Virus record (IMG/VR): IMGVR_UViG_3300046804_000671
Location: 1-55,271 of that record
Length of the DNA stretch: 55,271 nucleotides
Direction: 5' to 3' (one strand)
Source: a virus
Taxonomy: Duplodnaviria > Caudoviricetes
Both the position numbers and the translations under genes were made by a program. The notes under the pieces are model-generated. The model ran no database searches and had not been told where the DNA came from. It saw nothing but the letters and a program-made list of their open reading frames with translations. Of this stretch, positions 4,580-55,271 are shown one piece after another (position 1 is the stretch's first letter; each line of letters opens with the position of its first letter).

Positions 4580-4893
4580 GCGTTCTGTACGCAAGAGGCA
4601 AACACGCCTTTGGATTCTGTGATAGGTGCGGATTCAGGGCTGACTTGTCTGAGATGAAGCACCAGATCTACGATCAGAGAGATATCAATCTTCTGGTCTG
4701 TGATACCTGCTGGGATGAAGACCAGCCTCAGCTTCAGATTGGCAGGACGCCCATCAACGATCCTCAGGCGCTGTACAATCCGAGACCTGATATTGCTCAG
4801 GGGGCCAGCAGAAGACTGTTTGGCTGGAACCCAGTGGGCAATCCAGCCATCCAGATTACCTCATATTTGGGTACAGTTAAAGTTATTACTTGA
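4576..4893 (+). CDS. Hypothetical zinc-ribbon protein
   Basis: CDRC...CDTC; ATGA overlap with the previous gene. Confidence 0.6.
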   Translation: MSVLYARGKHAFGFCDRCGFRADLSEMKHQIYDQRDINLLVCDTCWDEDQPQLQIGRTPINDPQALYNPRPDIAQGASRRLFGWNPVGNPAIQITSYLGTVKVIT

Positions 4894-4918
4894 CAAAATT
4901 TGTTATGTAGTACATAGT
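4890..4918 (+). promoter_or_regulatory. Candidate sigma70 promoter
   Basis: TTGACA-N17-CATAGT in an AT-rich gap. Confidence 0.45.
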
Positions 4919-6855: not shown

Positions 6856-9530
6856 TGTCTCTTGTTCTTGCCGACAGAGTACTTGAAACATCAGCTACAA
6901 CAGGAACCGGCAGCTTTACGCTTGCTGGTCCTGTAACTGGTTTTCAGTCGTTTAATACTGCAATCGGCAATGGGAACACAACTTACTATACTATTGAATG
7001 TCCCGCAACTGGAGAGTGGGAGGTTGGTCTTGGAACTTTCACCTCCCCCTCCACCCTTGCTAGAACGCAAGTATATTCCTCTTCAAACGCAGGTTCCGCT
7101 GTAAATTTCTCCGCTGGAGGAAAAAACGTCTTTGTTGATATGTCTGCAACAAAGTGGTCTGGCGGTAAGCTTGCGCTTGCAAATGGTGGTACAAACGCAG
7201 ACCTTTCTTCAACAGGCGGAACCTCTCAGGTTCTTCAGCAGTCAAGTGCTGGAGCGGCAATTACAGTCGGGCAGCTTTCTGCAAGCAATCTAAGCAACGG
7301 CACCACAGGATCTGGGTCGGTGGTTCTGTCCACCAGCCCGACTTTGACGACGCCTAACTTCAGCAGCATCGTCAATACCGGCACGCTCACCCTGCCAACG
7401 TCCACCGATACGCTTGTCGGTCGCGCAACTAGCGACACGCTGACCAACAAGTCGATCAGTGGCAGCACCAACACGCTGACCAACATCGGTAACTCCTCGC
7501 TAACCAATTCGTCTGTCACGATCAACGGATCGAGCGTCTCGCTCGGCGGCAGCGTCACGGTGACCGCTGCCGCGTCGTCAATCACGGTCGGCACGACCAC
7601 AGTTGGCAGCGGAACCAGCGGCTACATCCTCTACAACAACGGCGGGACGCTCGGGAACCTGTCTACCACCGGCACAGCAGGATCGGTGGTGCTGTCGGCG
7701 TCTCCGACGTTGAGCGGAACCGTAGGCGGCGCACTGACCTTTAGCGGCGCTCTTACGCTTTCAAGCGCCCTCACCTACGGCGGCGTCACCCTGTCCAACT
7801 CGGTGACCGGCACCGGGAGCATGGTGCTGAGTGCATCGCCGACGCTCACCGGCACCCTCACCGTGACGAGCGCAGCGGTCTATGGCTTCCCGCTGGTCGT
7901 CTCCAAGGGAGCCTATGGCGGCGGCATCCGCATCACCACGACCACGAGCAACAATTCCGAATTTCAGATGTACGACACCACGGCGGGTGGTTTCGGGTTC
8001 TTTGCTGATAGCGCGGCAAGCGGGAGGTTCAATCTTTATGGCGTGAGCAGCGGCGGTGCCTATGTGGCTACATGGCTGACGGCCAGTGCCTCGGGCATGA
8101 CACTGCCGAACGCCCTGACCTACGGCGGCGTAACGCTGGCGAACAGCGTAACCGGCACTGGGAGCATGGTGCTGTCCACCAGTCCGTCGTTCGGCGGGAC
8201 TGTCGTGTTTAGCTCGATGACCGGCAGCAATCTCTACACGACCGCTGGCGTCATGCAGATGAGCCGCGATAGCTCGACGGGCGGCGGCCTGCTGTTCATC
8301 GACTCGGCGGCGGGCGGACAGAACTGGCAGGCTGGCCCCGGCTCGGGCACGGGCAACAAGGATTACTGGGGCCTCTACAACTTCGGCACGACCACGACCG
8401 TGCTGAACATTGGCAAGACCGGCGATGTGAACGCGGGGTCTTCGTTCGTTGCCCCGTACTTTAGCGCCAGCAGTGCATACCAATTTAGCGGTGCCAATGT
8501 GCTGCTGCGGACCAGCGGCTACACGGTCCTGTACGACGGCTCGACGCGCCAGAACCTGTTCCTCGGCAACACCAGTGATCCGACCAACTACTACCGGAAC
8601 ACCACCCACTTCTTCCAGACCGTGGGCGGCGCGGCCAACATCCTGAGCATGACAGGCACGTTGGCGACGTTCGCGGTGCCTCTCAACTACGGCGGCGTCA
8701 CCCTCGCCAACAGTGTCACCGGCACTGGGAGCATGGTGCTGTCGGCGTCTCCGACGCTGACGGGGACATTAGTAACATCACATACACAAGCCACCGGCAC
8801 AGGTAACGATTTTTATAACTGTGGATTTGAAACAATAGGCAATGGTGTCACAAATACTGTATATCCCGGAGTTGGATTCCATCAGCCCGGAGTCTTTGCC
8901 TCAAGTATTCAATTGCGCGGTGGAGGAGATTTTAGATTCTACTCGCAGGGCGCTGCATCATATGCAAACATTACTGCTGCGGCGGGTACATTTACCAGCA
9001 CTCTAACTTCCAATTCGTATGTGTATAGCAACACCGGAACTGGCGCGATGGCGCGCTTTGTGTTGCAGAATACAAACCGCAGTTGGTCGATTTCGAATTA
9101 CGGGACGACATACACGCCCAATGGCGCGTTCGTTATAGCCGACGAGACGGCGGGCGCTGTCCGCATGACCATCGACACCAGCGGCAACTTTATCTTCGGT
9201 TCTGCCACTCTTGCCGCGCCTTCCACAGCAGCCCCGCTGGCAATGGCGCGCTGCTGGGTCAATTTCAACGGCTCGTCGGGCGCGGTCACCAGTTCGTTGA
9301 ACGTGTCCAGCGTTACACGCTCTGGTTCGGGTCTATACACCGTCAACATGACGACTGCCGCGCCAAACACCACATACGCGCGATTTGCTTCAGCATATGG
9401 TGGTCCCGGCGTGTTTTCCGGCGTTGACTGGAGCGGAGCATCTACGTCAGCGTTCAACGTTTATACAGCAAACACAGTAACTCAAGCATATCAAGACGCC
9501 AACCCAGTATACGCACTAGCATTTTGGTGA
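6855..9530 (+). CDS. Tail fibre protein 1 (modular)
   Basis: 891 aa, S/T/G-rich; LADRVLETSATTGTG N-terminal anchor, YGGVTLxNSVTGTGSMVLS repeats, ARCWVNFNG C-terminal tip domain. Confidence 0.85.
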   Translation: MSLVLADRVLETSATTGTGSFTLAGPVTGFQSFNTAIGNGNTTYYTIECPATGEWEVGLGTFTSPSTLARTQVYSSSNAGSAVNFSAGGKNVFVDMSATKWSGGKLALANGGTNADLSSTGGTSQVLQQSSAGAAITVGQLSASNLSNGTTGSGSVVLSTSPTLTTPNFSSIVNTGTLTLPTSTDTLVGRATSDTLTNKSISGSTNTLTNIGNSSLTNSSVTINGSSVSLGGSVTVTAAASSITVGTTTVGSGTSGYILYNNGGTLGNLSTTGTAGSVVLSASPTLSGTVGGALTFSGALTLSSALTYGGVTLSNSVTGTGSMVLSASPTLTGTLTVTSAAVYGFPLVVSKGAYGGGIRITTTTSNNSEFQMYDTTAGGFGFFADSAASGRFNLYGVSSGGAYVATWLTASASGMTLPNALTYGGVTLANSVTGTGSMVLSTSPSFGGTVVFSSMTGSNLYTTAGVMQMSRDSSTGGGLLFIDSAAGGQNWQAGPGSGTGNKDYWGLYNFGTTTTVLNIGKTGDVNAGSSFVAPYFSASSAYQFSGANVLLRTSGYTVLYDGSTRQNLFLGNTSDPTNYYRNTTHFFQTVGGAANILSMTGTLATFAVPLNYGGVTLANSVTGTGSMVLSASPTLTGTLVTSHTQATGTGNDFYNCGFETIGNGVTNTVYPGVGFHQPGVFASSIQLRGGGDFRFYSQGAASYANITAAAGTFTSTLTSNSYVYSNTGTGAMARFVLQNTNRSWSISNYGTTYTPNGAFVIADETAGAVRMTIDTSGNFIFGSATLAAPSTAAPLAMARCWVNFNGSSGAVTSSLNVSSVTRSGSGLYTVNMTTAAPNTTYARFASAYGGPGVFSGVDWSGASTSAFNVYTANTVTQAYQDANPVYALAFW

Positions 9531-9534
9531 GAAT

Positions 9535-9930
9535 ATGAAGATTATTATTTGGCCACAAGACAACGGTCCTATTGCAGTTTGTATTCCTTCTGGAGAAATT
9601 TCGCTTGAAGAAGTAATTGCAAAGGACGTTCCCAAAAACGTATCATACAAAGTAATTAATGTTGAAGACTTGCCACTTCAGATGGGGGATGAATTCTTTG
9701 ATGCGGTTAGGATTGAGAATGAATCTATTGTTGTAAGTCTAGAGGCGGCAAAGGCTTTGGTCTTGGTAAAAATCAATAACAATGCAAGAATTGAGGCTAG
9801 AACAAGACAGGAAAACACAAACATTGGCATTCCAAATACACCGGATGACCAGACTTGGATTTCAAATTTGAACAACAAGAGATCATCCGTCAACAGTGCA
9901 ACTACAATTGAAGAGCTTAGGAATATATAA
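9535..9930 (+). CDS. Putative tail fibre assembly chaperone
   Basis: Follows the fibre gene; IAKDVP...ATTIEELR pattern. Confidence 0.5.
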   Translation: MKIIIWPQDNGPIAVCIPSGEISLEEVIAKDVPKNVSYKVINVEDLPLQMGDEFFDAVRIENESIVVSLEAAKALVLVKINNNARIEARTRQENTNIGIPNTPDDQTWISNLNNKRSSVNSATTIEELRNI

Positions 9931-10275
9931 ATGTCTATTTCATACTCGCTGAAGATTACACAGATGGATGTAGAGCCTCATGCTGAAGATCAGGTGAATG
10001 TTGTTGTTTGCGCTCACTGGGCCTACACGGGAACAGAGAACAACAAGTCTGCCGGTTATGGTGGCAAGACATATTTCACATATACATCAGGCGATCCGTT
10101 TACGCCCTATGATCAGCTTACAGAAGATCAGGTTTCTGGATGGGTTCTGGGGGCTTGGACACCTGATCAGAAGTCAATCTACGAGTCAGCTATCTCGGCC
10201 TCTCTTGCGTCTCAGGCAGAGCCTCTCCCTTGGGGTGGGAAAAATACTATTGCAAATCCTGTTAAGGAAGATTAA
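9931..10275 (+). CDS. Conserved tail-region hypothetical protein
   Basis: VVVCAHW...FTPYDQLTEDQVSGWV...LPW pattern. Confidence 0.6.
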   Translation: MSISYSLKITQMDVEPHAEDQVNVVVCAHWAYTGTENNKSAGYGGKTYFTYTSGDPFTPYDQLTEDQVSGWVLGAWTPDQKSIYESAISASLASQAEPLPWGGKNTIANPVKED

Positions 10276-22343: not shown

Positions 22344-25300
22344 ATGGACCTTTCATCTCTCTCTGACGAAGAACTGATGCATCTGTATAACAGCGGAGGC
22401 AAGAAGTCAAAAGATCTTTCGTCTATGTCTGACCAGCAGCTTATGGATTTGTATGGAAGGCTTTCTCCACCAAAGCCTCCCGCTACCAGAGCAGAAGAGA
22501 AGAAGGCACAGGAAGAGCCGGGAGTATTTGGTAGGCTTGGCAAAGAGTTTAGTCGCCAGACAGAAAGCCTTATCTCTTCAGGCAGAACAGCATACGAGAC
22601 TCTCACAGAAGAAGACAAGGCTGCTGTTGCTCATAGAGCAGAAGAGAGACAGAAGAAGATTGCGGAGAAGTATGGGCCGGAGAGAGGCCTTGCTGAAGTT
22701 CAGAAGGCATACGAAGAGAAGGGAATTCTTCCTGCCGCTGGAGAAGTTCTGTATCAGGTTCCGGGTGCCATTGGTTCTATTCTTCCGACAATGGCTGGTG
22801 GTATTGTTGGCGGATTGGTTGGAGGCCCCGCTGGTGCCGCTATTGGCATGGGTGCTGTTTCTGGCGCTACACAGTTGGGAACAAATCTAGAGCGTCAGTT
22901 TGAGAAGCAGGCAAATGAAGGGAAGCCAATCGACCCGGATGTAGGAGCCGCTGCCATTGGCGCTCTTGCTCAGGCTGGACTTGATACCGCTGGCTTCATG
23001 ATTCCATTCGGTAAGGCAATCATTGCTCCATTCTCAAAGGTTGCATCCAAGAGCGGGACTGCTGCCGCTGAGAAGCTTGCCGCCGAGTCAATCACCAAGA
23101 CCCTTGCAAAGGGTACTGCTGTTGGAATGATCGCTGAAGTTCCGACAGAAGTCGCACAGCAGATGATCGAAAGATATCAGGCTGGATTGGATCTGTTCTC
23201 GGATGATGCTCTAAAGGAATATGCAGAGATTGCATATAAGACTTCAATCAGCGTTGCTCCTCTTGGCGGCCCCGGAAGGATGATTGAGAAATCAGGAGCC
23301 AAGGCTCAGGTTGCAAAAGCAGCCGCCGACGAGGAAGAGAAGAAGCGTCTTGCCGCAGAGGAGACGCAGTACGTTGGTCAGAGACAGCAGGAATTCATTC
23401 AGGCTGATGAGGCCAGACGACAGCAGGAGCAGGCTCAGTCTGAAGAGGCTGCTAAAGCTGCTGGAATGGGATATGTTCCCAAGCTTGAAGCTCCACCAAA
23501 GAGAGCAGAGGATAGTGCCCCCGCTCCAGAAGAGAGAACATACCCAGAACTCAGGGGTGACAATTTTGTAATTGTTGGAGAGAAGAGCGGAAACCCTGTT
23601 CAGGGTGGCTTCAGAACAATGGAAGAGGCAAAGGCTGCTTCAGATAAATTCAATTCATTGTTTGAAGAATCGGAAGGTAGGGCAGAAGAAGAAGAACTTA
23701 AGTCTATTCGCAAACAGCACGGCGATCTTCTTAAGGCTCTTGCAAACCCAGACTATATTCCAATTGACAAGTCTAAGCTTAAGGGGTCTGACGGTTGGCT
23801 CGCGCTTAAAATCAATGAACATAGAAGAAACCGTGGCGCTGACGACCGCACAATTGCATCTAACATTACATATCCTGCTGAAATTGCAGAACTGAATATT
23901 CACAACCCGAAGGAACTGTCTGACAGACTTATTGAAGAGCAGTACCCCGGAGTAAAGGCAAAGGGTCTAACAATCCCCGCGCTTGGTGCTACGGCAAGAG
24001 GTGAAGCTCTAATTAATAAGCATGATACAATCGATTCAATTCCGAAGAGAATGACCAAAGATCTAAAGGTCATCGCTGCCGAAAATGGAATTGAAGTAAA
24101 TGCAGGAACAAAGCCTCTAGATGTAATCAACAACCTTAGAAAGATTTCTGGAAGAGATGCTCTTGTTAAGGAAGAAGAGCAGCTTGGAAAAAATAGACCT
24201 GCAATTGTTAGCGCCCAGCCAGATAGCATAACTAGGCAGGCCAGAGAGCAGCAGATCGCTGAAGAGAGAGCCTCTAAAGATTGGGAGAACAGCCCTGTCC
24301 GTCCGTTTTCTGAGGCTGTTGAGAAGCAGCAGGATAGAGTAAACAAGCTTACAGAAGCTGCCGAAAAAGCCAAAAACAACAAGGCCAAGGTCGCTCTACA
24401 GAAGCGTATCGACAAGGCTCAGGAACAGCTTAATGAGGCCCAGAATAATCTTAACGAGGCCAAGAAGAAGTACGGAGTAACAGAAGGACCGTACCGCCCA
24501 GCGGAAGTAATCGGCCAGCAGAAGGTTCAGGAACAGTCCAAGATGAAGGCTGCCCTGAAGACCGCATTCGACAGGATGGGTCTGACCAAGCAGGGCATCT
24601 CGCCTCAGGTCGTGGACTATCTGGCCAATGAACAGGGTCAGGCACAGAGAGGTGCCGGTGCTGTAGAGGCCGAGTACAATCCTCAGGCCAAGACAATTAC
24701 CTTCGCCTCAGATATCTACGATCCAAACCTTTCTGTTGACCAGATCGTTGACAAAATGATGGACGTTCTCAACCATGAGATCATCCATTCCCTGAAGGCC
24801 GCTGGTCTTTTCACCAAGCCTGAATGGAACATCCTTGAGAACTTCGTGAAGAGCGGAGAAGGCAAGAGATTCCTTGAGCGTGCCAAGATTGTCTATCCAG
24901 ACTTGTCCACAGAGGCACAGATCGAAGAGGCTGTTGCGGAGGCTGCCCGTGCCTTCAAGGCTGGCGACTTCAAGCCTGTTGGAAAGCCAAGAAGTCTTTT
25001 CGAACGCATCATCAACTTCTTCAAGAGTATCTTTTCAACAGCCAAGACAAACAACACCACACCTGACGCCATCTTCAATGCAATAAGAACTGGAGAGATT
25101 GGTGGTCGCAAGGCCACGCAGGATGCCGCCAAGACGCAGCCTATGCAGTCAAGGGTTGGCGACAATGGAGGCCCTCCACTGGAGGAAAAGAAGAACTGGA
25201 TCAACGTTCCTAGACTTCTCCAGTTCCTTGGCAGTCAGATGTACAAGAATGACATTGGTCAGGTTGCTTCGAAGGAGCTTATTCAGAATGCCTTTGACTC

Positions 25301-28300
25301 AGTGAAGATGGCTCAAGCTCAGGGCGTGTTGCTTGGGCCGGGAAAGATTATCTATGATTATCATTCCAAAGAAAACATCATGAAGGTGTCCGATAACGGT
25401 ATCGGAATGGACGAAGATGTTCTTCGCAAGGCGTTCTTTACTGTATTCGGAAGCGACAAGAAGGGACTTGATCCAAAGGAAAGATCAGGTGGATTTGGTC
25501 TTGCAAAACTTGCTTATCTTCTTGCGGCTGAAGACATCAAAATCAAAACTACAAAGGATGGAGTAACGTATAGAATTCATACTTCTGGTGAAGCCATCAA
25601 GAAGATGTATGAAGATGGAACTGACATTAAGATTGACAAGGAGTCAACTCCCAGCGCGCCAAATGGAACTTCTGTCGAGGTTAAAATTCCCAAGGAATCT
25701 GTCGACAGAATGTCTGGGAATAAAGTTGAGAATTCAGTTTTGTATCCTCGTGTTCTTCATGGACGTAATAGAAAGTTCATCGGCAACGCCAAGTTCTACG
25801 AAAGAGCTTACTGGCAAAGAGATGAAGAGCCTGAAGAGATCAAAGAACTTACAGACCTAAGTGAGTTTGATCCTCCTCAAACAAAAAAGTTTTCATGGGG
25901 AGAAGTTGACGTATATCTTGGCAGGAAGCTTGAAGAAGGCAGCGAACGCGCTCAGGTTTTGAGCGCTGGAGTTTATCAGTTCAATTATTCTATTATGGAT
26001 AATTTTAAGTCTCCAAAGATTAAGTCGATATTCAATGTAAAGCCATACAACACTCCAGCCCCAATTGATCTTGAGGAGTACATCGGAGAAGGAAAGAAAG
26101 AAGGAACATCAACAGCATATCCGTTTACACCTGATAGAGAGAACTTCTCTGAGTTTGTCAAGGGAGACTTGGGGACACTTGAAGCAATTGTCTGGAAGAG
26201 GCATAACGATTTGGTTATGCAGAGCCAAGTCAAGGCGATGTCATCGTTTTATAAGATGAAGCAGTCTAGTGGAGAGTCTGGCGGTGGATTTAGATTCAAG
26301 AGCATTAGCAGCCCAACAAATACCTCAGGCAAGTCAACCCAGTTTGAGAAGGTTGATGTCGGTCTTAGCGACATAGACATTAAAAACAATGTTTTTACTG
26401 GAGACAAGAGTAAATTTCCTTCTTTTGAGCCTTACTTCCACAACAATCTTGACATTGACATTGTAGAAAAGGCCGCTAGCGAACACGGCATCCAGCCAGA
26501 AAGAGCAAGGCAGTTCTTCTTTGAGCTTGGCAAGGTTGTTCATGATTTTTCGTTTAAGAATATTGCTGCTGTTGCTGAGGTAAATCCTGATTATAAGTCA
26601 TATCTCCCCGGAGCGGAAGAAAGAATTGCTGGAATATCACTGGATAAGGATTACGCTGGAGTCAATGCAAGATTCCCACTTTCCGGCATGTACCTAAATC
26701 CTTTCTACACTGAATTCTTTTCATCTAGAAATATCAAACTTACTCCGTCAATAATGGGTCCGTACTGGCTCAGAGTAATGAAACACGAAGCAGCTCATGA
26801 AGTTGCAAGAGGACATAACAATGATTTCTGCGTAGAAGAGGTTGTGCTTGACACACTTCTTCACGACACCGATGGTAAAGCTGGACCAACCATGTCAAAC
26901 CTCATGAAGAGGTTTGAAAAAATCTATTCAGATTATCTAACAGAATATGAGGCGATGAAAGATGTCTACGACAGAGATGATACGAAAAACAATTCTACTT
27001 CCCTCGATGACCAAAGGCTCAGCGAAGGACCCGAACTGGAAGAAGACTCTGGAAGAAAGGCTGTTCGGTCTAGAGATGAGTATGTTTCTGGTAGAGAAAG
27101 ACAAGAGGTCGCGTCCGGAAGACAAGAAGGAAGCGAAGGAGGTTTCTTTGTTCCTAAAGGAATGTCTATCGAAGCTGAAAGCGTCACCGACCAAGGAAGT
27201 GTTCGCCAAAAGAATGGGCCTGTAAAGCAGGCAAGAGTTGGTCCTTCCAATCCTGTGAATATTAATCTTAATACACCTACGCAGGTTGGAAGAAGCAACC
27301 AGATCAACCAGCTTATCATTAACAACAATAGATATCTTTCTCAGCTTACCGCTGAAGAGGGCACTCGCACTTCCCAAACCTACAAAGACTATATCAAGGA
27401 AGTGATTGACCCATTCCATATGCTTGGTAAGGGTGCTGACAAGTTCCGCATTGCTAGGGCGCTTCTTGTCGGAAACATTGCCGAGATGACCAGAAAGGTC
27501 AATGACTACGTCAAGGCTATCGGTGATGCCAAGGGAGACAAGAAGGCTATCTACGATTACCTGACAACAAGAGGTGCCCTGCCTGACCGTATTGGTAATG
27601 CTGAAGCAAGAAGGGCGGCGGTCGCCGTCAAGGATATCATCAACGATATCGGAGACGAGCTTGTCAGGCAGAATCTGATCAGCCAGAACGAAAGAAACCG
27701 CTTCCTTGATTCGTATCTGCCCAGAGTATATCTGGCTTATATCGATAAGAAGCATGTCAGGGGAGGCATCAAGCCTTCTTACCAGTACTACCTTGAGCAT
27801 CGTCAAGACTTGACTGAGGAGGAGAGAACCCGCCTCGGAGAGATTGACGATCCTGCATTCCTTGTTCAGGAAGCTCTGTTCTCTCCGCTCCGTGATCTTG
27901 CCATTCTAAACTTCTTCAAGAAGATCAATGACATTGGACAGGGTCAATGGATCATTGGGATGGATGCAATCAGATATACAAACCCTTCAGGGCATACATA
28001 CCAGAAGTCACTGCCTGAACTGAAGATGTTCAAGCATAGACTTGAAAGCATGATCTCTGATGGAACGGTTGAGCCTTCAAGGGCTGCTGTTGCAAACGAC
28101 GAGCTTGCTCATCTCACTTCGTTCATCAATAACGTCGAGAGCCAGCTTGACGCCAACGTTGACAAGGGAAGATACATTAAGGTTGCCAAGGACCCGAAGA
28201 GATTCGGTCCTTTGGCTGGAGTGTGGCTTGCTCGCCCAATCTACAGAGACATCATGGGAATGGGTTCATTCGTTCCAAACGACATGAGCGCCGTTGCTGC

Positions 28301-29771
28301 CGCGTTCTCTGATGGTGGCCTAATGGCCAAGGCTACCCGCCACTTCAAGGTGGCAAAGGTCGCCATGAATCCTCCTACCATTGTCACAAACATTATCTCC
28401 AATACACTTATGATGCATTTCGCTGATGTGCCAATGCGTCTAATCTTCCCTAGGGTTGCCAGCGTGTTCAAGGAGATTGTTGTAGACAAGAGAGGAAGAT
28501 ACTACGATCTCGTCCATAAGTACGGACTCAAGGAAACAACACTGTCTGAGGTTGAGCTTCACCGTCTGTACGATGAACTCCGCAATAGACAGATTGGTTC
28601 ATCTGGACTCGGCAATGTCATGGGCATGTTCAATGCACTTGGCAGAGCATATGGAAATCTTGAAGACAAGGCCAGCAATATGTACGGCTCAATCGAGACC
28701 GTCTTCAAGGCGGCCGTCATCAAGGATGCCATCGAGCGTCAGGGTCTGTCTGAGGAGCAGGCTGTACTCAAGGCAAACAAGTACCTGTTCGATTACAGCG
28801 AGGTTCATGACTCAGTTAAGGCTCTCAGAAACGTTCCGTTCGGAGCGCCGTTCTTGACTTGGTCCTACAAAATGACTCCGCTGCTCATCGAGACGGCTCT
28901 TACAAAGCCTTGGAAGTTCGCCCCATATGCCATGCTGTTCGCTGGCGTGTCAATGTACGCCTCTGCTGCAATGACTGATGCTGGCGGCGATCCTGAAGAC
29001 AAGGACAAGATGAAAAAGTTCATCTCGCTCAAGGCTGCACAGAACCCAATGCTTCTTGCATACAGCCCAACAGATGCGTTCGATTTCGGCAAGTACATGC
29101 CTTTCAACAACATCTATAAGTTTGCCGACGCTCTTCTTAAGGGTGACTTTGTTGAGGCGTTCAAGGCGTTCGGATTCTTCGGAGGACCAATCGCTGATCT
29201 TGGTGTGGCGTTGCTTGCCAAGAAGGACCCATTCACTGGTAACGATATCTTCCCGAAGGGAGCATCATACGACGAGAAGGTTGCCCTGTCATTCAACTAC
29301 CTTCTCAACTCCTTCACTCCTTCATTCATGAAGGATATGCCTAGGTTCATTGCTGGGCACGGCATCAGCGATACTGAGCTTATCGCTGGCGCTGAGTCTC
29401 CGGTTGTCAACCTGTTGAAGAAGGTGTTTGAAGATCCAACTGGCAAGAAGCCCGGAATGCCTACAAAGGATTACGGTGAAATCTTTGCCAACATCTTTGG
29501 GTTCAATATCTACCATCCGTCATTCGCTCAGTATGCAATGAACCTAAACAAGTTCAACAGAGAGATCGATGACATCAAGACTGGTAGAAGAAACGCATTG
29601 ATGGACCCCACCCTGTCAAAGGGTGAGATCGAAAGCATCAACAAGAAGTATACAAAAATGCTTGAGGAGAAATCCAAGGAACTCCGAGACTTTGTCAAGG
29701 ACTCCAAGATTTCTCCACAAGTTATGGAAGTCATCAGGCAGAGCGTTGAGGGTACAGCGAGGAGCAAATGA
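22344..29771 (+). CDS. Large polyvalent ejection protein with two HExxH metallopeptidase-like motifs and a GHKL ATPase domain
   Basis: 2475 aa; HEIIH (~24774), ELIQNAFD/DNGIGM/GGFGLAK/NGTSV (~25270-25680), HEAAH (~26784). Confidence 0.75.
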   Translation: MDLSSLSDEELMHLYNSGGKKSKDLSSMSDQQLMDLYGRLSPPKPPATRAEEKKAQEEPGVFGRLGKEFSRQTESLISSGRTAYETLTEEDKAAVAHRAEERQKKIAEKYGPERGLAEVQKAYEEKGILPAAGEVLYQVPGAIGSILPTMAGGIVGGLVGGPAGAAIGMGAVSGATQLGTNLERQFEKQANEGKPIDPDVGAAAIGALAQAGLDTAGFMIPFGKAIIAPFSKVASKSGTAAAEKLAAESITKTLAKGTAVGMIAEVPTEVAQQMIERYQAGLDLFSDDALKEYAEIAYKTSISVAPLGGPGRMIEKSGAKAQVAKAAADEEEKKRLAAEETQYVGQRQQEFIQADEARRQQEQAQSEEAAKAAGMGYVPKLEAPPKRAEDSAPAPEERTYPELRGDNFVIVGEKSGNPVQGGFRTMEEAKAASDKFNSLFEESEGRAEEEELKSIRKQHGDLLKALANPDYIPIDKSKLKGSDGWLALKINEHRRNRGADDRTIASNITYPAEIAELNIHNPKELSDRLIEEQYPGVKAKGLTIPALGATARGEALINKHDTIDSIPKRMTKDLKVIAAENGIEVNAGTKPLDVINNLRKISGRDALVKEEEQLGKNRPAIVSAQPDSITRQAREQQIAEERASKDWENSPVRPFSEAVEKQQDRVNKLTEAAEKAKNNKAKVALQKRIDKAQEQLNEAQNNLNEAKKKYGVTEGPYRPAEVIGQQKVQEQSKMKAALKTAFDRMGLTKQGISPQVVDYLANEQGQAQRGAGAVEAEYNPQAKTITFASDIYDPNLSVDQIVDKMMDVLNHEIIHSLKAAGLFTKPEWNILENFVKSGEGKRFLERAKIVYPDLSTEAQIEEAVAEAARAFKAGDFKPVGKPRSLFERIINFFKSIFSTAKTNNTTPDAIFNAIRTGEIGGRKATQDAAKTQPMQSRVGDNGGPPLEEKKNWINVPRLLQFLGSQMYKNDIGQVASKELIQNAFDSVKMAQAQGVLLGPGKIIYDYHSKENIMKVSDNGIGMDEDVLRKAFFTVFGSDKKGLDPKERSGGFGLAKLAYLLAAEDIKIKTTKDGVTYRIHTSGEAIKKMYEDGTDIKIDKESTPSAPNGTSVEVKIPKESVDRMSGNKVENSVLYPRVLHGRNRKFIGNAKFYERAYWQRDEEPEEIKELTDLSEFDPPQTKKFSWGEVDVYLGRKLEEGSERAQVLSAGVYQFNYSIMDNFKSPKIKSIFNVKPYNTPAPIDLEEYIGEGKKEGTSTAYPFTPDRENFSEFVKGDLGTLEAIVWKRHNDLVMQSQVKAMSSFYKMKQSSGESGGGFRFKSISSPTNTSGKSTQFEKVDVGLSDIDIKNNVFTGDKSKFPSFEPYFHNNLDIDIVEKAASEHGIQPERARQFFFELGKVVHDFSFKNIAAVAEVNPDYKSYLPGAEERIAGISLDKDYAGVNARFPLSGMYLNPFYTEFFSSRNIKLTPSIMGPYWLRVMKHEAAHEVARGHNNDFCVEEVVLDTLLHDTDGKAGPTMSNLMKRFEKIYSDYLTEYEAMKDVYDRDDTKNNSTSLDDQRLSEGPELEEDSGRKAVRSRDEYVSGRERQEVASGRQEGSEGGFFVPKGMSIEAESVTDQGSVRQKNGPVKQARVGPSNPVNINLNTPTQVGRSNQINQLIINNNRYLSQLTAEEGTRTSQTYKDYIKEVIDPFHMLGKGADKFRIARALLVGNIAEMTRKVNDYVKAIGDAKGDKKAIYDYLTTRGALPDRIGNAEARRAAVAVKDIINDIGDELVRQNLISQNERNRFLDSYLPRVYLAYIDKKHVRGGIKPSYQYYLEHRQDLTEEERTRLGEIDDPAFLVQEALFSPLRDLAILNFFKKINDIGQGQWIIGMDAIRYTNPSGHTYQKSLPELKMFKHRLESMISDGTVEPSRAAVANDELAHLTSFINNVESQLDANVDKGRYIKVAKDPKRFGPLAGVWLARPIYRDIMGMGSFVPNDMSAVAAAFSDGGLMAKATRHFKVAKVAMNPPTIVTNIISNTLMMHFADVPMRLIFPRVASVFKEIVVDKRGRYYDLVHKYGLKETTLSEVELHRLYDELRNRQIGSSGLGNVMGMFNALGRAYGNLEDKASNMYGSIETVFKAAVIKDAIERQGLSEEQAVLKANKYLFDYSEVHDSVKALRNVPFGAPFLTWSYKMTPLLIETALTKPWKFAPYAMLFAGVSMYASAAMTDAGGDPEDKDKMKKFISLKAAQNPMLLAYSPTDAFDFGKYMPFNNIYKFADALLKGDFVEAFKAFGFFGGPIADLGVALLAKKDPFTGNDIFPKGASYDEKVALSFNYLLNSFTPSFMKDMPRFIAGHGISDTELIAGAESPVVNLLKKVFEDPTGKKPGMPTKDYGEIFANIFGFNIYHPSFAQYAMNLNKFNREIDDIKTGRRNALMDPTLSKGEIESINKKYTKMLEEKSKELRDFVKDSKISPQVMEVIRQSVEGTARSK

Positions 29772-53265: not shown

Positions 53266-53343
53266 TATGTCCAGGAAAAAACCTGGACATTTTGACCATA
53301 TATTTTTTTTAACCTAGCGAACGCCTCGCTTTCAAGGTGCCAC

Positions 53344-53796
53344 ATGACCAAACACAAGATGACTATCAAGCAGGAAGACTTTGCAAGATTGGTAGGATAC
53401 GAGGGAGTATCCCAGATTGATGCCTACAGACAGGCATATAACCCAAAGACAAAGTCTCCCACTGCACTAGCCTCAATGGCATATAGATTGTCTATCCATC
53501 CCCTAGTGTCTCAGGCAATCACCAAGTACAGGGATCAGAGAGAACAGGACAAGAAGATTGATGCCGGTACGATTAGAGAACTCCTTCTGAATACCTTGAT
53601 TAGTAAGGTCAAGGAAGCCAAGACGGAATCCAATCAATTAAGGGCAGTGGAATTGCTGGGTAAGACGGAGGATATTGGATTGTTCAAGGAGAGAATTGAA
53701 ACAACGACAGTCAAGTCAAGCGATGATTTGGAAAAGGAATTGAGGGAAAAGTTACACAATCTATTTGGGAAGCCCAAGATTGTTGCAAGTAATTGA
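53344..53796 (+). CDS. terS: Terminase small subunit
   Basis: TIKQEDFAR...DAYRQAY...AYRL..HPLV..AI...RAVELLGK HTH pattern typical of TerS. Confidence 0.75.
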   Translation: MTKHKMTIKQEDFARLVGYEGVSQIDAYRQAYNPKTKSPTALASMAYRLSIHPLVSQAITKYRDQREQDKKIDAGTIRELLLNTLISKVKEAKTESNQLRAVELLGKTEDIGLFKERIETTTVKSSDDLEKELREKLHNLFGKPKIVASN

Positions 53797-54015
53797 TTTG
53801 CCTAGAGATTAGGCAGATCGAGATTATTAGGATTTGTTTTTTATATCTGGTTTGATTGTGGTTGGTTAATGCCGGGAGATTGGGGGATTTTGGTAGGGGG
53901 ATTAGGATTTTGCAGGCAAACGATTTGATTTTTTTATAAAAACCACATCTCCAGGCCTTCCCAACCGTTGGGAAACTGCTATTGAGAATCATTCTCATTC
54001 CTGGACCTAGGCAAC

Positions 54016-54048
54016 AAAAAGCCCCCTAGACCTAAGCCTAGGGGGCTT
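54016..54048 (-). terminator. Rho-independent terminator of the 54053..54676 gene
   Basis: Minus strand: GCCCCCTAG-loop-CTAGGGGGC-TTTTT. Confidence 0.8.
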
Positions 54049-54052
54049 CCTG

Positions 54053-54676
54053 TTACTTCTTAAAGGTGATCACAACCGTGCCATGCTGGGCGCTGTAGAC
54101 CGCCTCGGCCTTCGCCTCGTGGGCCTGCCACAGCAGCAACTCGACAAGCTGGCTGTGACCGCCGGTTGCGGCGGGCGTTTCGGCCAGCGTGGCAATGTGG
54201 GGCCGGTTGTAGTTCATGACCTTGTCGAGCGCCGTTCCCGGCCCCTGTCCGCCCTTGCCCTTCGCCTTGGGCTTGTCAGACTTCTTTTCGGCGGCGTTCA
54301 CTGACTTAATCGATACGCTCGCGAGCGCCTCGCCCTTGCCTTCAATGTCAATCGCCTTGCGGGCGTTCGTGACATAGTTGGAAAGATACTTCTTTGCGCC
54401 CTTCTCATCCGTGCCGCGCTTCTCGGCGACCGCGTCCAGCAACGGGCGCATGGCAAGCTCGCGCTCGCGCCCCTCAACCGTGAGCTTGAAGATCGCCATG
54501 ATGGCGGCCGTAAGCCGCTCGCCGATCTTCGTATAGACGTCGAACGCGGTCGAGTGTTCCAAGAACACTGCGATGGCCGTATCCGACGCCGCCTTGATAG
54601 CAGCGGCACGGTCGACTGGCTTGGCATCCGCAACGGGGATGACCGGAGCAACCTTAGCCTTGATAACCTTTGCCAT
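54053..54676 (-). CDS. Stand-alone early protein (Ala/Lys-rich)
   Basis: AGGAG RBS, own promoter and terminator, GC-rich codons. Confidence 0.7.
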   Translation of the reverse strand: MAKVIKAKVAPVIPVADAKPVDRAAAIKAASDTAIAVFLEHSTAFDVYTKIGERLTAAIMAIFKLTVEGRERELAMRPLLDAVAEKRGTDEKGAKKYLSNYVTNARKAIDIEGKGEALASVSIKSVNAAEKKSDKPKAKGKGGQGPGTALDKVMNYNRPHIATLAETPAATGGHSQLVELLLWQAHEAKAEAVYSAQHGTVVITFKK

Positions 54677-54794
54677 TTGACACTCCTAATGGCTCCCATG
54701 CAAAAAAAACCCGTTCCACGCGCGGGGAGCCAGCGCGGGCAGATGGGGTTTCAGACGATGCATAGAGCGGTCGGCGAATGGAACCGACACGCAC

Positions 54795-54822
54795 ACAGTA
54801 CAGGTACCAGCGGCACGGTCAA
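54795..54822 (-). promoter_or_regulatory. Candidate sigma70 promoter
   Basis: TTGACC-N16-TACTGT on the minus strand. Confidence 0.5.
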
Positions 54823-54868
54823 GGGGGGCTGTGGATTTTTTCCTTCCCAACGGTTGGGAAAAAGTTAA

Positions 54869-55098
54869 TGCGAATCATTCGCAACCTGGAGTCCAGGATG
54901 CAATTGAGAATCATTCTCACTTCCCAACGGTTGGGAAACTGCAATTGATAATCATTCGCAACTCGGCCGTTGATGCAAATGAGAATCATTCGCAACCCGT
55001 TGTCAGGTGCAATTGATAATCATTCGCATATAGATCCAAGATGCAATTGATAATCATTATCACCTGGAGATCCAGGATACGATTAAGAATCATTTGCA
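54869..55098. repeat. Periodic array of 7 Fur-box-like 7-1-7 palindromes
   Basis: TG(A/C)(G/T)AATCATT(C/A)(G/T)CA at 54869, 54905, 54946, 54980, 55014, 55048 and a degenerate copy at 55084; another copy at 53983. Confidence 0.85.
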
Positions 55099-55139
55099 AC
55101 TAGCTGCGGCTGGCTGGTCGTGGGCGCGCTCAGACCGGC

Positions 55140-55271
55140 AGGGGGGGGCGACCCCACCCACCGGCACCCCCCTGTGCGGCAGCGGGTCCCCCGGCGGCAA
55201 GCCACGCCAACTAATCCGCACACCCGGTACCCCCACATATAAAAATTAATTCCCCCAAATAAAAATTATCC
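55140..55271. other. G/C-run-rich non-coding segment, candidate packaging/terminus region
   Basis: GGGGGGG and CCCCCC runs followed by A-tracts, downstream of terS. Role is inferred. Confidence 0.35.

Follow-up and report, generated by a model that had tools for sequence, protein, structure and literature searches.

Tandem arrays of Fur-type boxes in phages: putative operators for a host metal sensor with a possible role in cis

We analysed a tandem array of palindromes in a 55,271-nucleotide DNA sequence from a virus of the Caudoviricetes (Duplodnaviria; IMG/VR record IMGVR_UViG_3300046804_000671). The whole of this record is called the window here. By sequence, the seven palindromes of the array and an eighth copy on the far side of a neighbouring gene are well supported as operators of the Fur family of metal sensors (Fur-alpha/Mur type), and host Fur probably binds them. 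Comparable arrays recur in unrelated phages. As a tentative explanation, we propose that the array represents eight operator sites for the host's Fur-family metal sensor that act in cis on the neighbouring gene, P0001. Fur binding, its metal dependence, and the direction and target of the control are what we infer.

A tandem array of palindromic boxes

An initial annotation, made by a model from the sequence alone, had described seven regularly spaced palindromes, usually preceded by TGCAAT, and an eighth copy at 53983. The palindromes and the eighth copy were confirmed. The seven 15-bp palindromes start at 54869, 54905, 54946, 54980, 55014, 55048 and 55084, with spacings of 36, 41, 34, 34, 34 and 36 bp. 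Six of them, together with the outlier at 53983, match the pattern TGNNAATCATTNNCA exactly, and box 55084 has one mismatch. TGCAAT lies directly 5′ of four of the seven array boxes, and TGCAAA lies 5′ of one more.

54869–55098, no strand assigned: seven Fur-type boxes, each in a unit of about 22 bp, TGCaAt-TGAgAATCATTCgCA-a
53983–53997, no strand assigned: outlying eighth Fur-type box, TGAGAATCATTCTCA

When up to one mismatch to TGNNAATCATTNNCA was allowed, we found 18 strand matches in the 55,271-bp window, compared with 1.50 ± 1.21 expected by chance (100 dinucleotide-preserving shuffles, in which the largest count was 6 and none reached 18). Fifteen of these 18 matches were the eight boxes themselves, on one or both strands, and the remaining three (10940, 14818 and 47012) carried a mismatch each. 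Tandem Repeats Finder reported a period of 34 bp at 54940–55058 (3.5 copies, 74% matches). Alignment of the eight window units with nine units from a related viral locus, L240, revealed that only the unit of about 22 bp was constant and that the spacers were noise, which suggests that selection acts on the box and not on the whole repeat. The array may have originated by duplication of a 34-bp unit of which only the box of about 22 bp was held constant. No open reading frame (ORF) of more than 61 codons crosses the array. We also considered a between-box palindrome, CCTGGAG(N)TCCAGG, as a signal and rejected it, as it occurred at the level of chance (3 matches versus 1.39 expected).

The boxes have the sequence of Fur-family operators

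The core of box 55048, TGATAATCATTATCA, is the 15-bp core of the consensus quoted in PMC1698941, the available text of which describes Fur-alpha and Mur boxes as 19-bp palindromes that resemble each other and the classical consensus AATGATAATnATTATCATT. The remaining boxes resemble Caulobacter-type sites, with TGAGAA/TGCGAA arms. One site, ATTGAGAACCATTCTCAAA, comes from a set of predicted Caulobacter Fur sites that, according to the available text, were validated in part in vitro (PMC2724300). Phage unit 54905 is the same as this site at 16 of 19 positions and differs at 3 of 19.

We then examined the genomic context of a 21-mer representing the extended unit, TGCAATTGANAATCATTCNCA, one copy of which was present in each of at least 120 stretches of bacterial sequence. 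Among the matches listed, the carriers were mostly Alphaproteobacteria (Pelagibacteraceae, Caulobacteraceae, Hyphomonas, Sphingomonadales, Rhodobacteraceae and Mesorhizobium), together with some Gammaproteobacteria and others, and the 21-mer lay outside any ORF of more than 200 codons in 105 of the 120. Ten ORFs beside it, hand-picked by size and taxon and not a random sample, encoded two TonB-dependent receptors, a Pelagibacteraceae solute-binding protein, two ZnuA/SitA-type binding proteins, an Nramp/MntH protein, an Rrf2 regulator, a major facilitator superfamily (MFS) transporter, a succinyl-CoA ligase subunit and one protein without a family. A metal-uptake gene or the Rrf2 regulator made up seven of these ten picks, in bacteria other than the phage's host. 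Genes of these kinds are what a Fur or Mur regulon would be expected to contain.

A search of the window for a Fur gene found none. The initial annotation had read the palindromes as Fur-family boxes, and this reading is backed by the metal-gene context in bacteria, by the Caulobacter sites, by the Fur-alpha/Mur consensus and by the lack of a detectable Fur-family protein in array-bearing viral records, described below.

Arrays recur in viruses and are nearly absent from bacterial genomes

A scan of viral contigs with a two-box pattern returned at least 119 loci. Among the 119 loci listed, 28 had three or more exact boxes within 450 bp, and 26 of these 28 lay outside any ORF of at least 80 codons. 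The G+C fraction of the loci spanned 0.16–0.62. As a criterion for an array the two-box pattern was too loose and was abandoned: it admitted many chance pairs, and five of its loci (L006, L043, L061, L085 and L113) lay inside DUF3310 coding sequence. Arrays were thereafter defined by box counts and by a three-box pattern with spacings of 32–46 bp. This pattern was found in 33 viral stretches, compared with 5 for the reversed pattern, and 24 of the 33 contained at least three strict Fur-type boxes. In bacteria and archaea (596 Gb, 185,579 species genomes) the pattern was found in 14 stretches, only 3 of them of strict Fur type and the rest perfect satellites of other sequence; this comparison is one of counts only, the base total of the viral collection not being stated. 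The initial annotation had remarked that seven boxes are more than one promoter needs, and the near absence of the three-box architecture from 596 Gb of bacterial genomes is in line with that remark.

The array-bearing loci fell into about 17 clusters by common ORFs. Consecutive boxes were most commonly 32–45 bp apart, and box-bearing contigs ranged from 16 to 64% G+C. The number of repeat units differed between close relatives among contigs from public sequencing runs. No Fur-family protein was found in 44 array-bearing viral records, ten of which are at least 90% complete. In those ten, all boxes fell into one or two clusters, and the control pattern, read in reverse, had no match.

Several individual genomes are described here for their arrangement. 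G007 (L279), a complete 55.8-kb phage of 61% G+C, carries two Fur-box arrays about 3.5 kb apart (1019–1214 and 4660–4900), one of them upstream of terS–terL and the second upstream of the leftward operon that comes before. In its relative G042, a lone box lies 3.4 kb away from the array. Bacteroidales and Rikenellaceae contigs (L256 and L258) contain tandem T(G/A)(A/G)GAATGATTATCA with a 17-bp period, in 10–11 copies each.

A promoter-like element and a second palindrome beside the array

The array adjoins P0001, an ORF that is bracketed by boxes. The following features bear on a role in cis.

54053–54676, minus strand: P0001, an ORF of 207 amino acids bracketed by boxes, in a GC-rich region
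54795–54822, minus strand: promoter-like element of P0001, with a −35-like TTGACC (54822–54817), a 16-nt spacer and a −10-like TACTGT (54800–54795)
53958–53974, no strand assigned: phage palindrome TTCCCAACCGTTGGGAA, which forms a pair with the outlying box, 24 bp from centre to centre
54844–54860, no strand assigned: phage palindrome TTCCCAACGGTTGGGAA, centre 24 bp from the centre of box 1
54921–54937, no strand assigned: phage palindrome inside the array, centre 24 bp from the centre of box 3

Every array box lies upstream of the −35 hexamer of the P0001 element, and the nearest box ends 46 bp away from it. Sites that overlap the −35 or −10 hexamer, as in classical repression, were not found among the array boxes. 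In the available text on Caulobacter, Fur sites upstream of the −35 hexamer are associated with activation and overlapping sites with repression (PMC2724300). The same alignment columns in L240 read TAGACT, 16 nt and TAGGAT, and the leader is kept there too. A sigma-70 consensus scan of 53300–55271 returned no promoter, the P0001 element scoring 8 of 12 against a threshold of 9 of 12. The initial annotation had offered an iron-sensing switch on this adjacent promoter as an alternative to a sponge for Fur. The element itself gains from being kept in L240, and its use as an iron switch loses from the position of all boxes upstream of the −35 hexamer. Such a switch nevertheless fits the window at least as well as a sponge does.

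We also identified a 17-bp palindrome, TTCCCAACNGTTGGGAA, of which the window contains seven copies compared with 0.25 expected (41287, 51792, 52659, 53163, 53958, 54844 and 54921). In three of three window pairs, the distance from this palindrome to a Fur-type box, centre to centre, is 24 bp; the other four copies have no adjoining box. The corresponding palindrome of L240 differs in sequence, TTCT(T/C)AAG..TT(A/G)AGAA, and lies 23.5 bp from a box in three of three pairs. Two more copies in L240, without boxes, lie upstream of another ORF. Given that the palindrome has changed in L240 while the box has been kept, the palindrome behaves like the drifted operator of a phage-encoded regulator, and it is probably the operator of such a regulator of the early region. 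P0001 may be the protein that binds it, a speculation prompted by the divergence of P0001 between the window and L240 (55% identity) where TerS was kept (85%).

The P0001 leader (54677–54795, minus strand) contains a GC-rich hairpin followed by T8 just ahead of the ribosome-binding site, and this arrangement is kept in L240. The hairpin may act as an attenuator or form the 3′ end of a small RNA. Its fold was no better than that of shuffled sequence (z −1.65).

A model of control in cis by host Fur

We propose that, in a metal-replete host, metal-loaded Fur dimers would occupy the boxes and so coat some 230 bp of DNA directly upstream of the P0001 promoter. This coat would most likely work in cis: from its upstream position it would control P0001 in a metal-dependent manner, and probably also a rightward lysis/terminase module that is missing from the fragment. 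A role in cis is suggested by the position of the boxes upstream of the −35 hexamer and by the fixed 24-bp register of three of them with the putative phage operator. Control could take the form of activation, anti-silencing or looping to the outlying box, the last of these being suggested by the box and palindrome that lie on the far side of P0001. As phage genomes multiply, some Fur would be expected to be titrated as a by-product. A host protein is more likely to bind the boxes than a phage protein, because no Fur gene was found in the window or in the 44 array-bearing records, because TerS genes of at least four families lie beside arrays, because the box is present in contigs of widely differing G+C content (16–64%) and because L240 keeps the box although its phage palindrome has changed.

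Several observations weigh against this model. Seven to eight sites far exceed the number at bacterial Fur-controlled promoters, and ordinary promoter control does not explain the design; in the available text on Caulobacter, genes mostly have one predicted Fur site and have four at most (PMC2724300). In L022 some 190 bp or more separate the boxes from the closest promoter-like sequence. A tblastn search with P0001 (E 1e-5) found no match among the 119 viral loci listed, and the absence of a BLAST-detectable P0001 from other lineages implies that the common role of the arrays is not the control of P0001. The bias towards terminase genes and the boxes in the terminal repeats of phage T5, both described below, may point to a role in packaging or DNA entry instead. 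Finally, the similarity of the TerS-like proteins of the window and L240 means that, within this lineage alone, TerS may be the binder.

Titration of host Fur in trans

According to a second explanation, the array is a sponge that acts in trans and has no target in cis: hundreds of copies of the eight sites on replicating genomes would soak up metal-loaded Fur and derepress the iron and manganese uptake genes of the host. The principle is that of the Fur titration assay (FURTA), in which, according to the available text, a Fur box on a multicopy plasmid removes Fur from the chromosomal fhuF promoter (PMC3423075). The enrichment of the three-box architecture in viruses (33 stretches versus 5 reversed and 14 bacterial, with 24 of 33 versus 3 of 14 being of strict Fur type) is consistent with a sponge, as are the spacings of 32–45 bp, which would allow independent, close-packed occupancy, the variation in unit number between close relatives and the placing of the boxes off the core promoter-like elements in the window and in L022. 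A sponge needs no particular position, yet in 8 of 17 clusters a TerL gene was found no more than about 4.5 kb from the array, and the exact boxes of T5 are only in its terminal repeats. Three of the window boxes are also in fixed 24-bp register with the putative phage operator. T5 is also described, in the available text, as degrading host DNA rapidly and early in infection (10.64898/2026.04.02.716235), so that derepression of host genes would be pointless for the array in that phage. In a metal-limited host, Fur would already be off the DNA. An architecture specific to viruses nevertheless asks for an explanation specific to viruses, and we regard titration as a viable but rather unlikely main function of the array.

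Arrays beside terminase genes and in the T5 injection stop region

A third explanation is that Fur bound to the array aids terminase, or protects or arrests the DNA near a genome end, during packaging or entry. A host protein in such a role has a precedent in lambda, in which IHF at cosB aids recognition of the packaging site by terminase. In the window, the array lies downstream of a TerS-like gene.

53344–53796, plus strand: TerS-like gene of 150 amino acids (phrog_51, E 1.5e-8; Pfam Terminase_2, E 6.5e-5, 24 bits, below the cut-off of 26.1 bits)

In the clusters with TerL near the array, the array was usually 190–450 bp upstream of a terS/terL operon. TerL proteins near arrays matched Pfam Terminase_6N/6C clearly in three loci (L022, L107 and L095), below the cut-off in two (L062 and L001) and through BLAST clustering only in one (L047). 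Among ten further largest-neighbour ORFs, seven were TerL of phrog_15, phrog_2 or phrog_38, and the other three were a primase/helicase, a primase/polymerase and a ribonucleotide reductase. That arrays lie 190–450 bp upstream of terS/terL in several lineages, with TerL of different families, favours a packaging role. So does the position of the window array, which has terS on one side and, on the other, a conserved GC-run element where assembly graphs branch.

A permissive blastn search with the window array and a second array gave matches in untranslated regions of T5-like phages and of Escherichia coli phages of the genus Phapecoctavirus. Salmonella phage SP01 (L282, about 500–700) has about six boxes with 29–40 bp spacing, adjoining DnaA boxes, and Escherichia phage anhysbys (L281, 2483–2584) has four intergenic boxes with 29-bp spacing when one to two mismatches are allowed. 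In T5 (NC_005859), exact boxes were found only in the terminal repeats, at 233 and 9658 and in the right-repeat copies (control pattern, 1), and none was found in the unique region of about 100 kb. Five to six Fur-like boxes lie at 9554–9720, inside the annotated injection stop signal (9140–10149) and next to DnaA boxes; the array coincides with the shear point of first-step transfer, calculated as 9618 in the available text of 10.1101/866236. The exact box at 233–247 is 233 bp from the left end. The available part of that analysis of the T5 repeats discusses the DnaA boxes of the stop region, proposes DnaA and calls the responsible host protein unsolved; in the same part, neither Fur nor iron is mentioned (10.1101/866236).

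Relatives with a homologous packaging module are free of boxes (0 of 4 whole records), which implies that the array is not a core packaging signal. In one cluster (L036, L263 and L265) the array precedes small ORFs, after which comes a homologue of primase/helicase, and no TerL was identified in the vicinity. Our literature search found no role for Fur in packaging or injection. On balance, a packaging, end or entry function seems doubtful to us, about as much so as titration.

A phage-encoded binder is the least favoured explanation

The boxes could instead be operators or iterons for a phage protein, such as TerS, a repressor or a replication initiator, with a coincidental likeness to Fur sites. 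Phage origins, repressor sites and TerS sites typically have palindromes in arrays. The TerS-like protein of the window is 85% identical to that of L240, and the box is kept in both; an AT-rich stretch (55232–55268) follows the array, and the missing portion of the genome, about 9%, could encode a binder. A site for TerS would be expected to follow the TerS family. TerS proteins beside arrays belong to at least four PHROG families (phrog_51, phrog_2538, phrog_18995 and phrog_57), which argues against a TerS-specific site: the box lies in or next to terS/terL and does not co-vary with the TerS family. As for replication iterons, the same box is present in at least 17 clusters, and in the window the primase/helicase gene (41651) and a DnaA-C-like gene (44174) are about 10 kb or more away. 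Across the clusters, the only protein common within 3 kb is TerL, in only nine loci. One would also expect a phage-specific site to diverge, which the second palindrome has done between the window and L240. The box motif is, moreover, the motif found beside metal-uptake genes in bacteria. These results make a phage-encoded binder very unlikely.

The array belongs to an accessory cassette

The window and L240 share a region of about 1.3 kb between terS and the GC-run element. This cassette is made up of the outlying box, a terminator hairpin, the minus-strand gene P0001 with its promoter and leader, and the array, which starts 1073 bp downstream of terS. In addition to the features listed above, the region includes the following.

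54013–54054, no strand assigned: hairpin with T-runs, terminator-like, an inverted repeat between the convergent terS and P0001 (terminator-like site at 54019–54048)
55125–55230, no strand assigned: conserved GC-run element, from alignment with L240 (1–150) and, in part, with Planktothrix phage Pag-Yong1

Pag-Yong1 lacks the cassette: its GC element directly follows a TerS-like ORF, with no box. Boxes were absent from the whole records of all four cultured relatives searched (Pag-Yong1, HTVC027P, CRP-902 and DSL-LC04). These results suggest that the array belongs to an accessory cassette and not to a conserved packaging core. The G+C content is 58% in the bin 54001–55000 compared with 43% in the preceding bin. 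AT-rich stretches with G5/C5 runs (53826–53911 and 55232–55268) flank the cassette as imperfect inverted repeats, and similar flanks are present in L240. This arrangement fits an inserted, moron-like cassette.

P0001 matched no Pfam or PHROG family. A large protein collection contained five such proteins, P0001 itself included, none of them named, and a protein atlas contained only unnamed viral look-alike clusters, with a poor model of its own (predicted template modelling score 0.46). The L240 homologue has the same arrangement as P0001. No relative of P0001 was found in viral contigs, and P0001 was not similar to the ORF at the equivalent position in L022. A search of 53300–55271 against Rfam at permissive thresholds gave nothing near any gathering score.

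The GC-run element corresponds to 1–150 in L240 and to 5095–5260 in L241. Contigs from public runs, which are assembled sequences, break or branch at 55141–55180, one alternative flank being at lower depth. We regard the element as a candidate for a core element in cis, for instance the packaging site; it could also be a repeat or the core of an attachment site.

The record and its relatives

The window is a linear record estimated to be 91% complete. The initial annotation had placed the array at a putative phage end, and this was not borne out. A contig from a public freshwater run continues for about 590 nt beyond base 55271, and a protein identical to P0001 is on record on a 62,601-bp contig. 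These longer contigs imply that the right end of the window is the end of a contig and that about 7 kb is missing just past the array. The runs that hold window sequence are freshwater metagenomes, and none of those listed is on record as RNA.

Genes for the large terminase and the portal were not found in the 91%-complete window. The capsid gene is at 627–1550, and the cultured phages with the most similar capsid proteins are Pag-Yong1 and Synechococcus phage MinM2 (72%), followed by DSL-LC04 (62%), Pelagibacter phages HTVC027P and HTVC023P (about 60%) and Roseobacter phage CRP-902 (54%). At default stringency, blastn found no match to 53300–55271 among cultured phages. The gene order of Pag-Yong1 is the TerS-like ORF, the GC-run element, other repeats, a lysis gene, TerL, portal, and then homologues of window ORF 4–609 and of the capsid. 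The window record begins 3 nt ahead of the ATG of ORF 4–609. The MinM2 capsid gene is at 625–1521, so both records begin at nearly the same homologous place. Elsewhere in the window, a 2475-residue ORF (22344–29771) with a GHKL-type ATPase domain (HATPase_c_3, residues 974–1087) follows a 1030-residue ORF with tail or lysis domain matches. The products of both are probably ejected internal virion proteins.

Comparison with known systems and wider implications

In a broader proposal, which we consider speculative and rather unlikely, tandem Fur-box arrays would be a widespread, virus-specific cis element through which phages put the metal sensor of the host to structural or timing use. As a timer, Fur would coat and hold down the packaging or late region until replication out-titrates it. 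Alternatively, the Fur array would be a checkpoint on DNA entry or packaging. If this is true, the T5 array would point to Fur as a candidate for the host factor that has long been sought in two-step injection. More generally, if Fur binds, phages would read or exploit host metal status in an undescribed way.

A full-text search, in which subscription journals were thinly covered, found no description of a regular, close-packed Fur-box array that recurs in unrelated phages. In the available text on Shiga toxin, Fur control of toxin production involves a single Fur box on a phage-borne gene. FURTA resembles the array in that chromosomal promoters lose Fur to the many Fur-box copies of a replicating element; it is, by contrast, a laboratory plasmid assay, and our literature search found no natural phage element with that role.

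The phage boxes share with bacterial Fur, Fur-alpha and Mur operators the inverted repeat and an upstream hexamer extension. With this extra hexamer each phage box presumably has the classical three-hexamer Fur-box layout, which we take to accommodate two dimers. Bacterial Fur operators differ in having one to a few sites, often overlapping, whereas the phage has seven in tandem at 34–41 bp, outside the core promoter. Lambda cosB, which combines TerS R sites with a host IHF site, is similar in having repeated protein sites beside terminase genes and the participation of a host protein. Unlike in cosB, the repeated site in the window is of host type, is common to different TerS families and is absent from close relatives.

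Sites for host transcription factors in phages are an established theme, and there is a real chance that the function of the array is new. CtrA boxes in phages of Alphaproteobacteria, as described in the available text (PMC9437464), and the DnaA-box clusters of T5 (10.1101/866236, likewise) resemble the array in that a non-coding phage region carries several sites for a host protein. They differ from it in that the presumed factor in the window is a metal sensor and in that its sites form a regular tandem array that recurs in unrelated phages.

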